The position numbers and the translations under genes were made by a program. Source: Myxococcales bacterium (lineage in GTDB: Bacteria > Myxococcota > B64-G9). Taken from it: a DNA stretch of 64,000 bases. Of the stretch, positions 53,596-61,398 are shown in pieces. Numbering within the stretch: position 1 is the first letter of the stretch; every line of letters starts with the position of its first letter. Location of the stretch: NCBI GenBank assembly GCA_012798435.1, contig JAAZNF010000118.1:1-64000 (forward strand). The letters are read 5' to 3'. The notes beneath the pieces were generated by a model that was given only the letters and a program-made list of their open reading frames with translations, was not told where the DNA came from and did not search any database.

Positions 53596-55176
53596 TTAAC
53601 GTCGGTGGCTGCGGCCGGAGCTACCGCTGGAGCTGGAGGAGCCGGAGGACTTGCCGCTCGAGGACCCGGACGAGCCGGACGATCTGCTGCCGGATGACCC
53701 CGAGGAGCCGGACGACCTGCTCCCCGACGGTGAGCTGGACGGCCGCGGCGACACCGATGGGCTGATGGAGTGCGAGGGAGAAGAGGACTTCATGCTGGGG
53801 GCGTGGTGTGGGGTGATCGGCGCGACCGGCGCGACCGTGCGGGAGCCGCCGGGCGAGGAGCGCTCCATGGTCGGCCGCTCTCGCGACGGCTGCGCCCGGG
53901 GCTCGACCGCGCTCGCCGGCGGCTGCTGGAGCGCGGGACCGAGGCGTTCCAGATCCACCGAGTTGCGCGGCATGTTACGCGGCCGCATGGCTGGCTGGCG
54001 CGGCTGGATGCTCTCGCCAGCCTCGGGGAATCGCATGGGGGACTGACCCGGATCGATCCGGTTCATCGGCTCGTCCTGGCCTTCCGGCAAGGGGCGCGGA
54101 CGTTCCACCTCGCGGGCGTTGGGGATGATGCCCAGGTCGCGGACCCGGGGCCGATCGCCGAAGACGGGTTGGGCCGGCCGGGTCGTGGTCGCAGGACGTG
54201 CGGAGGGCAACACGCTCGCCTTCTGGAAGCGCGGCCGGAACACCTGTACCTTCCCGTCCTGGACCTTGAGGCTGCCGACGTACCGAGGGGAAGTGTCCGC
54301 CATCCGGTACTTGGGGACGTCGCTCTTGGCATGCCGCGCCACGAAACGCTCGGTGAAGCCCTTCTGGCAGTTGCGGTGGGCCGAGTCGCGGCACCCGCGC
54401 GGATAGTGGGAGCGCCGAAAGTCGTCCTGGCAGTGCCGCCGGTGACGGTAGTGATGGTATGGGTGGGGATCCCAGAAGAATCCCCAGTCGATGAACACCC
54501 AGCCGTCGTAGAACACCGGGTAGTAGCCCCAGCCGTAGCCCCAGGCGTAGCCGGGAGGGATGGGGGCCCAGCCCAGGTAGCCGTCGGTGTAGCGCCACAT
54601 GACCCAGGCAGGGCCCCACACCGTGCTCGGCACCCACACCCAACCCAGCATGCTCATGAAGGCCCAGTTGCCGTAGTGGAACGGCGCCCAGCCCCAGGAC
54701 CAGTAGGAGTGCCAGTACCATCCGGCATCGGTGTAGAGCCAGCGGCCGTAGGTGTAGGGCCGCCAGTTGGCGCCGGTGCCGTTCGGACGCCACACCCAAC
54801 CGTACTGGTCGGTCCACAGCCACTCGCCGTAGGGAGAGAGCTTCTCGATGAAGAAATCGAGATCCACTTCCTGCCCCGGCGAAACCAGCGCGCCCTCGTC
54901 GGGGATGGGTTGGACCTCGGACGAAGCCTCCTCGCCGTCATCCGCGTACACGATGGCGGAATGCGGCGCGGCCGGCTCCGTTCCTTGGTCGTCCTCCGCT
55001 GTGCCCTCCGGCGCGTCCGGAACGGTCGGGCCTTCCGCCGGGTCTCCCGGCGGCGGCACCCATTCCTCGATGGCGTCGTCGTCGTCGAGGTTCTGGGCGA
55101 GGCCGGTAAGCGGGAAAATCAGCGAAATCGATATGATCCAGAAGATCGTGCTTTTTCGGGTATTGAGAGTGGTCAT
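53596..55176 (-). CDS. Secreted Trp/Tyr/Gly-rich repeat protein with a Ser/Gly/Pro-rich low-complexity C-terminal tail. Uncharacterised.
   Basis: Start moved to the second Met (MTTLNTRK...), which has a GGAGG Shine-Dalgarno 5 nt upstream. Signal peptide (IFWIISISLIFPLTGLAQ). A 110-aa block is packed with YGWVW / WSWGWAP / GWVWVP / YAWGYGWGYY units. The tail runs ...SPSVSPRPSSSPSGSRSSGSSGSSGSRSSGSSGSSSGKSSGSSSSSGSSGRSHRR. Confidence 0.6.
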   Translation of the reverse strand: MTTLNTRKSTIFWIISISLIFPLTGLAQNLDDDDAIEEWVPPPGDPAEGPTVPDAPEGTAEDDQGTEPAAPHSAIVYADDGEEASSEVQPIPDEGALVSPGQEVDLDFFIEKLSPYGEWLWTDQYGWVWRPNGTGANWRPYTYGRWLYTDAGWYWHSYWSWGWAPFHYGNWAFMSMLGWVWVPSTVWGPAWVMWRYTDGYLGWAPIPPGYAWGYGWGYYPVFYDGWVFIDWGFFWDPHPYHHYRHRRHCQDDFRRSHYPRGCRDSAHRNCQKGFTERFVARHAKSDVPKYRMADTSPRYVGSLKVQDGKVQVFRPRFQKASVLPSARPATTTRPAQPVFGDRPRVRDLGIIPNAREVERPRPLPEGQDEPMNRIDPGQSPMRFPEAGESIQPRQPAMRPRNMPRNSVDLERLGPALQQPPASAVEPRAQPSRERPTMERSSPGGSRTVAPVAPITPHHAPSMKSSSPSHSISPSVSPRPSSSPSGSRSSGSSGSSGSRSSGSSGSSSGKSSGSSSSSGSSGRSHRR

Positions 55177-55217
55177 GGCAACCTCCATAAGAAAGAGGCC
55201 GTTCGCAAGTATATTTT

Positions 55218-59935: not shown

Positions 59936-61398
59936 TCCTTGGGCTCCGAGGAGCGGTCCAGATCCATGATGCGTTGCCCCCCGACGTAGGACTTGGTCTC
60001 GTAGCGGGTGAGGTGGCCGATCTTGCGCACGATCTCCGCCATGCGCTCGGTCTCCTGCACGATGATGTCCAGGATGCGGCGGCACTCGTCGGCGTTGCCG
60101 AGCTTGCGGCGGGCCAGCTCGGCGTAGCCCAGCACCGAGGTGAGCGGCTGGTTGAGCTCGTGGGCGGTGGCGCCGGCCAGCTCGGCGATCATGGCCTGCT
60201 TCTCGGTCTTGAGCAGCTTCTCCTGGGCCTGGGAGAGCTTGCGCTCGATGCCCAGGCGCTCGCGCAGGTCCTGGAAGGTGCCCGCCGTGCCCACCTCGCG
60301 GCCGTTCTCGAAGAGGATCCAGGCGGTGAGCTGGATGGGGATGACCTCCCCGTTCTTGGCGATGATCTCCTTGCGAGACGAGGTCAGCCGCCCCGGCCCC
60401 TGGCGCAAGGTGACCATGATCTCCTTCGCCACCCCGGGCGGGTAGAGCCGGGTCACCGGGATGCGCCGGATCACCTCCTCGGCGGTGTAGCCCAGGATGC
60501 GCTCGGCGCCCTTGTTGAACAGGATGATGTTGCCCTTGGTGTCCACCGCGATGATGGCATCGACCGAAGTGTCCACCAGCGTCTCCAGGAAGGTGCGGGT
60601 CTGCTGAAGCTCGCCGATCAGGCGCCGCTCCTTGGAGACGTCGCGCAGGATGACGGCCCTTGCTTCACCGGCGCCTTCCCCCAGTTGGCAGAAAGCGGAA
60701 AGCTCGATGGTCCCGCCGCCGGGACGAATCACAGTGAGGTCGCCTTCTACGCGCGTGCCGGGTCGGGCGGCGTCGAGCGAGGCCAGGAAGGCCCGCGCGC
60801 TCTCCCCCGGCAGCGCCTCCTGCGCCGAAAGACCCGGGAGCGAGGCTGCCTCCCGCCCCAACAGCTCGCACGCCCGGCGGTTGGCCATCTGGATGCGGCC
60901 GTCCCCGCCGACGAGCAGGAGGCCGTGGGGTAGCATCTCCCACAGCTGACGCATGGCCTCGGTCGAGTCCTGGGCGGGCGCCGGCCCCGCCGAAGACGGT
61001 TCCTGGCGTCGACCCCGCACCCGCGCCGCGATTCTCGCCTTGAGTTCCCGGCTCTCGAAGGGTTTTCGCACCCAGTCGTCGGCGCCGGCCTCCAGGGCTT
61101 GCTGAATCAAACCGGGGTCGGAGGAGACCGACAGCACCACGATGGCGACGGAGGCGAGCGACGGGTCTTCGCGGACCTGGCGGCACACCTCCGCGCCGGA
61201 GAGCCCCGGCAGCATCCAGTCCAGCAGCACCGCGTCGGGCCGCTCGCGCCAGATGGCCGCCAGCCCCTCCCGGCCGTCGGCGGCGAGCGTGAGCTCCAGG
61301 TGCGGGTCGTCCAGGCAGGCGCGCAGGTACTCCCGGGTATCGGGGTTGTCCTCGATGATCAGCAGCCGGATGGGGCGTTCCTGGGCCTCGGTGCTCAT
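59932..61398 (-). CDS. Response-regulator receiver, two PAS domains and a HisKA dimerisation/phosphoacceptor domain, with no recognisable HATPase_c domain.
   Basis: Receiver domain (IRLLIIEDNPD...DAVLLDWMLPGLSG). PAS domains. H-box (ATAHELNQPLTSVLGYAEL). The protein ends about 60 aa after the H-box. Confidence 0.75.
   Translation of the reverse strand: MSTEAQERPIRLLIIEDNPDTREYLRACLDDPHLELTLAADGREGLAAIWRERPDAVLLDWMLPGLSGAEVCRQVREDPSLASVAIVVLSVSSDPGLIQQALEAGADDWVRKPFESRELKARIAARVRGRRQEPSSAGPAPAQDSTEAMRQLWEMLPHGLLLVGGDGRIQMANRRACELLGREAASLPGLSAQEALPGESARAFLASLDAARPGTRVEGDLTVIRPGGGTIELSAFCQLGEGAGEARAVILRDVSKERRLIGELQQTRTFLETLVDTSVDAIIAVDTKGNIILFNKGAERILGYTAEEVIRRIPVTRLYPPGVAKEIMVTLRQGPGRLTSSRKEIIAKNGEVIPIQLTAWILFENGREVGTAGTFQDLRERLGIERKLSQAQEKLLKTEKQAMIAELAGATAHELNQPLTSVLGYAELARRKLGNADECRRILDIIVQETERMAEIVRKIGHLTRYETKSYVGGQRIMDLDRSSEPKE

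Follow-up and report, generated by a model that had tools for sequence, protein, structure and literature searches.

A four-gene locus on the minus strand of a Myxococcales bacterium contig (JAAZNF010000118.1, positions 1 to 64,000; this whole 64-kb stretch, with 68% G+C, is referred to as the window) was examined by sequence and structure-model analysis, and the regulatory sites described are predicted sites. We conclude with good confidence that the locus is a self-contained enhancer-dependent control unit for one envelope protein, run by a membrane-integral one-component enhancer-binding protein (EBP) of the sigma-54 system. The four co-directional genes and the elements between them, with the basis of each assignment, are as follows.

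59932..61398, minus strand: gene 1, a receiver (REC)-PAS-PAS-HisKA protein without a catalytic ATPase domain (Pfam, sequence motifs)
58235..59935, minus strand: gene 2, a soluble GAF-PAS-HisKA-HATPase_c histidine kinase of 566 amino acids (aa) (Pfam, NCBIfam)
55352..58081, minus strand: gene 3, the membrane-integral one-component EBP, 909 aa (Pfam, motif and hydropathy scans, AlphaFold, Foldseek)
55299..55324, minus strand: putative enhancer, or upstream activating sequence (UAS), TGGAATCGTCCGGTATTCCGTTTTGG (conservation over 16 EBP-DUF6600 loci)
55234..55298, minus strand: AT-rich spacer from enhancer to promoter (48% G+C, versus 68% for the window)
55218..55233, minus strand: predicted sigma-54 promoter TGGCACGCCAGTTGCT (unique exact match, conserved)
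53596..55176, minus strand: gene 4, the predicted secreted DUF6600 target protein, 526 aa (Pfam DUF6600, signal peptide)

The promoter sequence TGGCACGCCAGTTGCT, read from 55233 to 55218, is the sole exact sigma-54 match in the 64 kb, and none of 100 shuffled sequences contained one. It has the TGGCAC-N5-TTGCW spacing, with the -24 GG at 55232-55231 and the -12 GC at 55220-55219. An earlier note on this DNA had described a perfect TGGCACG-N4-TTGCT element about 40 bp before the target gene and about 120 bp past the stop codon of the EBP gene; the site does end 41 bp before the likely DUF6600 ATG (55176) and begins 118 bp past the EBP stop codon (55352-55354). From the usual geometry of sigma-54 promoters, transcription would start near 55207 and leave a leader of about 31 nt.

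In order to compare the locus with its relatives, 19 close DUF6600 relatives were aligned and the alignment was scanned against one genome per species, which gave 80 loci. The twelve best loci came from metagenome-assembled genomes (MAGs) labelled Myxococcota or "Deltaproteobacteria". In eleven of these the DUF6600 gene is immediately preceded by the gene of an EBP of this family, and the twelfth, L011, is cut at a contig end. The full block of REC-x-HisKA, kinase, EBP and DUF6600 genes is found in ten of the eleven; the L005 contig begins within its kinase gene. The EBP sensors are 51-58% identical to that of the window, the AAA+ domains 66-70% and the kinases 56-64%, and for L001 the values are 93-97%. 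Four further EBPs (P0147-P0150, 49-51% identity; loci L084-L087) are also followed by a gene of the same DUF6600 subfamily. The resulting 16 EBP-DUF6600 loci are the window, L001-L010, L012 and L084-L087, and in most of them the EBP sensor is 49-58% identical to that of the window.

Each of the 16 EBP-DUF6600 loci has a -24/-12 site, placed 27-48 bp ahead of the start codon. The intergenic sites of L001-L010 and L012 read TGGCACATGCATTGCA, CGGCACGGTTATTGCT, TGGCATGTGCCTTGCA, TGGCATGCATATTGCT, TGGTATGCATCTTGCT, TGGCATGCACCTTGCA, TGGCATGATGGTTGCA, TGGCATGAGGCTTGCA and TGGCATCGCTCTTGCT, and those of L084-L087 read TGGCTCGCATCTTGCT, TGGCCCGCATCTTGCT, TGGCCCGCCTCTTGCT and TGGCGCGCATCTTGCT; GG.A....TTGC is invariant in a MAFFT alignment of 12 loci. 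The truncated L011 has the promoter as well, at its positions 7-22 (TGGCATGAGCATTGCA), about 175 nt before the DUF6600 start codon and thus much farther off than in the other loci. The earlier note had proposed checking the promoter and the UAS in orthologous loci, where we found the promoter in 17 of 17 loci of this DUF6600 subfamily and the upstream element in 16 of 16 EBP-DUF6600 loci. Given this conservation, transcription of the DUF6600 gene very probably depends on sigma-54, and the neighboring EBP very probably has this gene as its dedicated target, the role in which the note had cast its Trp-rich secreted protein.

The comparison also separated the EBP and its target from the two kinase-type genes. 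L084-L087 have no kinase or REC-HisKA gene upstream, and keep the EBP, enhancer, promoter and DUF6600 gene. L081 and L082, with the EBP P0152 (47% identity), keep overlapping genes for a REC-GAF-PAS-HisKA protein, the kinase and the EBP, and have no DUF6600 gene. From these two arrangements it follows that the EBP is the hub of the module and the kinases are accessory; as far as gene content tells, EBP-enhancer-promoter-DUF6600 is a self-sufficient pair. The comparative logic is the same as that of the one-component EBP regulon reconstruction in Desulfovibrio (PMC4641369). In both L081 (4722-12026) and L082 (113-7417) the trio is followed, 15 bp on, by genes for an extracytoplasmic function (ECF) sigma factor and a zf-HC2 anti-sigma factor.

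Gene 1 encodes 488 aa from the ATG at 61398, with an upstream ATG at 61425 being possible. The receiver motifs ED, LLDWMLPG and VRKP are readable in its sequence, and Pfam detected Response_reg, two PAS domains and HisKA, and no HATPase_c. Since a histidine kinase is defined by HATPase_c, gene 1 falls outside that definition and has only the receiver and the dimerization and histidine phosphotransfer (DHp) domains. Gene 2 belongs to the class I histidine kinases, with HisKA (PF00512), HATPase_c (PF02518), PAS and a weak GAF match, and no hydrophobic segment was found in it by a hydropathy scan. Its best named NCBIfam matches are AtoS and ZraS, all under the family cut-offs, and the NifL model matches it weakly (99.6 bits, versus a cut-off of 242). 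Both architectures, a REC-PAS-HisKA protein without an ATPase domain and a GAF-PAS kinase, had been recognized in the earlier note, as had the 4-bp ATGA overlap of the two frames (TGA 59934-59932, ATG 59935-59933).

The H-box of gene 1, LAGATAHELNQPLTS, is invariant in 12 orthologues, whose products all end 75-90 aa past the His; the L004 orthologue is a REC-GAF-PAS-HisKA protein, likewise without an ATPase domain. The H-box of gene 2, which begins LAAG[VI] and continues for 11 residues, is also invariant, and the G1 box is intact in 11 of 12 copies, being disrupted in L007. Because both H-boxes are invariant in 12 copies and the end position of gene 1 is fixed, the pair is, by its sequence conservation, under strong selection. 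The REC-HisKA, kinase and EBP genes are syntenic in 13 loci (14 with the 5'-truncated L005), often with overlapping genes, and the kinase and EBP genes themselves overlap in L004, L006 and L081. This synteny indicates that the kinase pair, a clade-specific accessory, is genuinely linked to the EBP.

In the window and L001, the kinase stop codon and the EBP ATG are separated by a gap of about 150 bp (58082-58234, minus strand). An alternative EBP start, GTG 58213, would add an Arg-rich extension not seen in homologues; the NCBI copy of the protein (P0121) has 909 aa, in agreement with the ATG at 58081. In L007 (4949-9567) the kinase has 444 aa and ends 114 aa past the His, and the EBP is split into open reading frames (ORFs) of 624 and 144 aa. 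Frameshifts, pseudogenes or assembly errors could explain these apparent disruptions; L007 has its enhancer, promoter and DUF6600 gene intact.

It is conceivable that the kinase pair works independently of the EBP, as a two-component branch of its own that does no more than share the operon and has an output not seen here. This would fit the occurrence of the EBP-target pair without kinases, and the phosphorylatable DHp domain of gene 1 could pass phosphate to a distant response regulator. However, the trio persists when the target changes (L081 and L082) and is kept in loci whose EBP sensors are 47-58% identical; its stop and start codons often overlap. Such a pattern is typical of proteins working together. 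We regard independence as unlikely, while giving it some weight, and retain the kinase pair as an accessory of the EBP.

The putative enhancer consists of an inverted repeat, TGGAAT-N8-ATTCC, followed by GTTTTGG as a third half-site, which reads TTGGAAT in the sister clade. All 16 EBP-DUF6600 loci have the 26-bp element, TGGAAT-N8-(T)ATTCCRTTTTGG, and none of the other 71 loci does. In the 14 loci where the distance was measured, 66-116 bp separate its TTCC from the -24 GG downstream. Of 87 scanned loci (the window itself being outside the scanned set), 12 contain the 13-mer TATTCCRTTTTGG, each of them a single time and always at the position of the element, and the remaining 75 lack it. In a MAFFT alignment of 12 sequences, TTCC.TTTTGG is invariant, and the enhancer, the promoter and the ribosome-binding site with its ATG are the only conserved islands in otherwise unalignable intergenic DNA. 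In L084-L087 the element is more symmetrical (TTGGAAT-N8-TATTCCATTTTGGAAT, three half-sites). A conserved symmetric site about 70-150 bp upstream that co-occurs with an EBP is what is expected of a UAS, and position and symmetry argue for assigning this putative site to the EBP rather than to another factor. The window has no other copy of the element; a lone match with three mismatches at 39761 is unrelated. The inverted repeat picked out in the earlier note as a candidate binding site, GGAATACCGGACGATTCC, belongs to this conserved element, but it lies at 55306-55323 in plus-strand coordinates and not at 55316-55333.

Read as RNA, the same element could be an intrinsic terminator of the EBP operon, with a GGAAU/AUUCC stem followed by GUUUUGG. 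A scan does flag a hairpin, CTGGAATCGTCCGG, followed by TATTCCGTTT, and in most loci the element comes shortly past the EBP stop codon. The stem, however, is only 5 bp long; the left-arm variants GGAAA, GGACA and GGCAG are not compensated by the right arm, which is always TTCC; and the third half-site GGAAT of L084-L087 would serve no purpose in a hairpin. In L002, about 290 bp lie between the EBP stop codon and the element, which is still 120 bp before the promoter. Because the half-sites are conserved, the arms are uncompensated and the L002 element stays by the promoter, a protein-binding site is favored over an RNA hairpin, and the terminator explanation is improbable, although the two roles are not mutually exclusive.

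Two other features of the spacer were considered. A one-mismatch site resembling that of integration host factor (IHF), TATCAAAGAGATG, is present on the opposite strand; a conserved IHF site between enhancer and promoter was rejected, as one-mismatch matches occur in only 3 of the 14 measured loci. Helical phasing of the enhancer-promoter distance was unconvincing, with the 66-116 bp distances clustering only loosely at steps of about 10-11 bp.

The EBP matches HAMP, Sigma54_activat, AAA_lid_14 and HTH_8 in Pfam, together with a sub-threshold dCache_1 (37.1 bits, versus a cut-off of 45). Its AAA+ domain (PF00158, E 4e-71), which identifies it as an EBP, has the Walker A motif GENGTGKE at residue 631, GAFTGA at 678 and LLLDEIG at 699 in a motif scan, and a Fis-type helix-turn-helix (HTH) domain (PF02954, E 2.6e-16) spans the final 42 residues. 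From the N terminus, the protein is laid out as a first transmembrane helix (TM1, about aa 15-44), a periplasmic dCache domain with insertions (about 45-480), a second transmembrane helix (TM2, about 481-511), HAMP, a coiled coil, AAA+, lid and HTH_8; the HAMP domain (PF00672, E 9e-19, 68 bits versus a cut-off of 25) directly follows TM2. The GAFTGA motif and the two hydrophobic segments agree with the membrane EBP of the earlier note. That note had also given the EBP a periplasmic sensor of about 420 aa, which was right as to the sensor and somewhat off as to its size, the periplasmic part being about 435 aa, with large insertions for a dCache domain.

The AlphaFold model of EBP residues 1-567 (predicted local distance difference test score, pLDDT, 87.8; predicted TM-score, pTM, 0.76) consists of a long TM1 helix, two alpha/beta modules, TM2, HAMP and a helix that runs on. 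A Foldseek search of the PDB with the sensor model returned the dCache domains 3lid, 2p7j, TlpA/TlpC, PctA and Tlp3 (best E 2e-8); these are double-Cache domains of kinases and chemoreceptors, with a target-normalized TM-score of about 0.6. Two stacked PAS-like modules and a long N-terminal helix, placed between the transmembrane helices, define a dCache domain and are present in the predicted model, which indicates that the EBP carries its own extracytoplasmic sensor of double-Cache fold.

About 34 relatives of the sensor (aa 1-567) with the same architecture were found in a collection of 5.8 billion proteins, and every one is from a Myxococcota or delta-type MAG. Beyond this family, the sensor comes closest to dCache-HAMP histidine kinases (33-39% identity over about half of the query), from which it follows that a sensor module has been joined directly to an EBP output. 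To survey such fusions, the segment from TM2 through HAMP and linker to Walker A was compared with 1.84 billion protein representatives. About 12 matches covered both HAMP and AAA+, and Pfam analysis of eight of these confirmed HAMP and a sigma-54 AAA+ domain in five (P0174, P0184, P0210, P0238 and P0279), with the architectures HAMP-AAA+, NIDO-like-HAMP-AAA+-HTH, dCache-HAMP-AAA+-HTH, HAMP-AAA+-HTH and sCache-HAMP-AAA+-HTH. The sensors in these metagenomic fusions (NIDO-like, sCache_3_2, dCache) are mutually unrelated. By this survey, sensor-HAMP-EBP fusions are rare, and not unique. No studied example was found in literature searches on membrane-bound, HAMP or Cache EBPs.

The location of the EBP in the membrane raises another explanation, in which the protein is a latent tethered factor and signal-induced cleavage frees a soluble AAA+-HTH part to activate the promoter. 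Such release would solve the problem of how a membrane-bound hexamer reaches DNA, and control by membrane release has a precedent in RedR2, an EBP that the membrane protein BtdS keeps sequestered (PMC10084136). Yet no protease gene is conserved in the module, HAMP and coiled coil are parts for reversible signal transmission and not a cleavage module, and an EBP that acts at the membrane near its own gene would agree with the strict adjacency of that gene to the target. Cleavage therefore appears quite improbable, and we prefer activation by the intact, membrane-integral EBP.

No Response_reg match was found in the EBP, the N-terminal 600 residues of which are accounted for by transmembrane helices, dCache, HAMP and coiled coil in Pfam and in the model. 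The protein is thus not an NtrC-type response regulator, a class defined by an N-terminal receiver with a phospho-acceptor Asp. This bears on the proposal of the earlier note that a multi-input phosphorelay feeds the EBP, with the kinase and the REC-PAS-HisKA protein forming a His-Asp-His phosphorelay that has the EBP as final acceptor. AtoS and ZraS are kinases that partner NtrC-type EBPs, and the matches of the kinase to these two, together with the synteny of the trio, the translational coupling of its genes and the invariance of both H-boxes, would suit such a relay. The EBP, however, has neither a receiver nor room for one, as TM2, HAMP and coiled coil lead into AAA+; L084-L087 retain EBP, enhancer, promoter and target without kinase genes; and L081 and L082 retain the trio without DUF6600. 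We consider the phosphorelay very improbable, and that claim of the note does not stand. By its architecture, the EBP should not be phosphorylated by the kinase, the natural substrate of which would be the receiver of gene 1. Because the EBP is without a receiver, any link between the kinase pair and the EBP must be of a non-phosphorylation type, and contact between the proteins is the probable way in which the pair acts on the EBP, the analogies being NifL-NifA and the PAS-to-HAMP signaling of Aer and CetAB.

Hardly any credence can be given to a fortuitous sigma-54 match with transcription from the sigma-70-like TTTCCA-17-TACAAT in the spacer (55277..55249, minus strand), a 9-of-12 match which scores at the shuffled expectation (2 found, versus a mean of 0.8 with a standard deviation of 0.9) and is not conserved elsewhere, versus the -24/-12 site in all 17 loci.

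The target protein belongs to DUF6600 (PF20245, E 3e-30, 104.7 bits versus a cut-off of 27) and has no other Pfam or NCBIfam match. It probably starts at the second ATG (55176), which is preceded by GGAGG at 55186-55182, and a hypothetical protein from a "Myxococcales bacterium" MAG (P0001) has the identical sequence. A Sec signal peptide (aa 1-28) and an acidic segment are followed by a Trp-rich domain of beta-hairpins (aa 105-235; of its 131 residues, 23 are Trp and 15 are Tyr), a His/Cys/Arg-rich segment (HPYHHYRHRRHC...C...C), a Pro/Arg-rich segment and a Ser/Gly-rich tail ending in RR. The model of the DUF6600 domain is confident and consists mainly of beta-hairpins, and no solved structure matched it. 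A ZraP/CpxP/Spy-type stress protein was considered and rejected, since there is no match to the LTXXQ-type signature and the model is mainly beta-hairpins. Because of the aromatic surface, the subfamily-specific HPxHHY...C...C segment (extremely His-rich in L085-L087) and the export signal, we suggest, with low confidence, that the protein binds glycans or metals in the envelope. Literature searches returned no paper mentioning DUF6600. The next gene after DUF6600 is convergent in at least 8 loci, and the target is therefore a single gene.

As a negative control, 68 DUF6600 loci of other phyla (47 kb) were scanned for sigma-54 promoters. Thirteen of them turned out to have near-perfect sigma-54 promoters 26-35 bp before the true DUF6600 lipoprotein start (e.g. 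TGGCACGATGTTTGCT), versus about 0.7 matches expected by chance in 47 kb, as estimated from the degeneracy of the pattern. These promoters are in the following loci.

L021, L049, L059, L069, L074, L076: Aminicenantes
L072: Acidobacteria
L037, L039, L053, L054, L079, L080: MAGs labelled Eubacteriales or Clostridiales

Most of the 13 loci have a different upstream inverted repeat, TGTCCC-T6-GGGACA, and none has an EBP gene within 10 kb. No such sigma-54 promoter was seen in the Verrucomicrobia DUF6600 loci. Sigma-54 control thus seems, on these predicted promoters, to be a recurrent property of the DUF6600 family.

Taken together, the following mechanism is proposed. The periplasmic double-Cache domain would sense an extracytoplasmic ligand or the state of the envelope, and the signal would pass through TM2, HAMP and coiled coil directly to the AAA+ domain. 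Active AAA+ domains would assemble on the three-half-site enhancer (TGGAAT-N8-ATTCC-N5-GG) about 90 bp upstream of the promoter, where the GAFTGA loop would contact the sigma-54 holoenzyme at TGGCACG-N4-TTGCT, and ATP hydrolysis would open the promoter. The product, a Trp-rich DUF6600 protein exported by Sec, would reach the periplasm or cell surface, with glycans or metals as possible ligands and the EBP sensor as a possible point of feedback. The soluble GAF-PAS kinase and its translationally coupled REC-PAS-HisKA partner would make up a two-component pair in the cytoplasm, which in one clade shares a transcript with the EBP and which most likely modulates the EBP by contact, in the manner of NifL-NifA or from PAS to HAMP, and not by phosphorylation.

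A wider proposal can be put forward only tentatively, and we would sooner doubt it than rely on it as a whole. DUF6600 proteins might constitute an ancient class of envelope proteins under sigma-54 control that spans several phyla and has a fold unseen in solved structures, of which those in this Myxococcota lineage would answer to a rare dCache-HAMP-AAA+ activator that turns periplasmic ligand binding into promoter melting at the membrane, with the kinases tuning it by contact with HAMP or coiled coil and the product perhaps feeding back.

Several observations weigh against the control unit as proposed. A tethered hexameric AAA+ activator must reach DNA at the membrane, for which no characterized precedent was found in the literature searches. 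Neither a promoter nor an enhancer adjoins the EBP in L081 and L082, and the EBP is thus not always beside its target. Wherever the enhancer is present, so are both the EBP family and this DUF6600 subfamily, which leaves position and symmetry as the grounds for assigning it to the EBP. The weak sigma-70-like match overlaps the enhancer-promoter spacer. Furthermore, read-through from the DUF6600 gene into the genes that follow it in the window is possible, because the hairpin after the DUF6600 gene is not significant: the candidate intrinsic terminator there, ACAGCG...CGCTGT-TTTTT, folds no better than shuffled sequence (z 0.58) and was rejected.

The genes in question form an hdr/mvh-like cluster (47297-53457, minus strand) that follows the DUF6600 gene after a gap of 138 bp and encodes HdrB/C-like (CCG and 4Fe-4S) and HdrA-like (FAD and 4Fe-4S) proteins and the small and large subunits of an Mvh-type [NiFe] hydrogenase. 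Genes like hdr also follow in L001, L003, L009 and L012, and genes like mvh in L001, L007 and L009; they are absent at other loci. No sigma-54 site was found ahead of the window hdr/mvh genes. The sole near-match, TGGCACGACCCGTGCT at 52635-52650 (minus strand, one mismatch), lies inside the HdrB/C-like ORF and is at chance level, and a second sigma-54 site for these genes was rejected. On the other side of the locus, a divergent gene (61520-62419, plus strand) encodes a 299-aa protein with an N-terminal zinc-ribbon-like CxxC...CxxC and no Pfam match; among the orthologous loci, the near-identical L001 is the only one in which this gene and the others upstream of gene 1 in the window are conserved. 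No further shared module genes were found, and the flanks of the orthologous loci hold housekeeping genes for GlgB, LarC, molybdenum cofactor (Moco) biosynthesis and peptidase M3.

With these predictions, the DUF6600 family would gain a regulator, an enhancer sequence and a promoter class. The locus is a compact example of a membrane-integral sigma-54 activator, the same architecture being present in a handful of other metagenomic protein clusters, and the mechanistic question of how a twice-membrane-spanning AAA+ hexamer assembles on DNA could be addressed with the four-gene cassette. Francke et al. are said to have concluded in 2011 that sigma-54 mainly controls the cell exterior, a view which the recurrence of sigma-54 promoters ahead of DUF6600 genes in other phyla would fit.

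The proposed unit has parts in common with several known systems. ZraS-ZraR-ZraP is a sigma-54 envelope stress system of E. coli and Salmonella. It shares with the unit an EBP gene next to a sigma-54-dependent gene that encodes a single periplasmic protein, extracytoplasmic sensing of the signal and possible feedback by the induced protein; ZraS and ZraR are also among the better named, below-cut-off NCBIfam matches of the kinase and the EBP. In contrast to that system, the periplasmic sensor and the AAA+ activator are one polypeptide here, without phosphotransfer, the target is a DUF6600 protein rather than a ZraP/CpxP-type one, and the genes are co-directional and not divergent. DctB-DctD of rhizobia pairs a double-PDC/dCache sensor kinase with an NtrC-family EBP. 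There too a periplasmic double-Cache domain controls a sigma-54 promoter via an AAA+ activator with a coiled-coil linker, and the closest relatives of the present sensor are dCache-HAMP histidine kinases, but here the kinase and receiver steps are missing and sensor-HAMP is fused directly to AAA+-HTH.

In NifL-NifA, a histidine-kinase-like PAS protein controls a receiver-less EBP by direct binding. The co-transcription and translational coupling of a PAS kinase-type gene with the gene of a receiver-less EBP is shared, and the system is a precedent for control without phosphotransfer. Unlike NifL, the kinase here keeps an invariant H-box and ATPase boxes, has a receiver partner and is not a NifL orthologue, and the EBP is membrane-integral and without GAF. 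ToxR and CadC are membrane-integral one-component activators which, like this EBP, combine a periplasmic sensor and a cytoplasmic DNA-binding output in one protein that acts on a nearby gene; they differ in being winged-helix activators at sigma-70 promoters, with no ATPase or enhancer dependence.

The cytoplasmic one-component EBPs XylR/DmpR, NorR and the Desulfovibrio set (PMC4641369) likewise have a sensor fused to AAA+-HTH, EBP genes co-localized with their sigma-54 targets and an inverted-repeat UAS about 100 bp upstream. Their V4R, GAF or PAS sensors are cytoplasmic and the proteins soluble, whereas the EBP described here spans the membrane twice and would sense the periplasm. In Aer and in CetA-CetB of Campylobacter, a soluble PAS protein signals into the HAMP domain of a membrane protein (PMC2628428), which offers a possible PAS-to-HAMP route for the kinase pair, with the difference that their output is chemotaxis and not transcription. 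By these analogies, the logic of the unit resembles that of ZraSR-ZraP or DctBD with phosphotransfer removed by fusion, its topology that of ToxR and CadC, and its gene order that of NifL-NifA.

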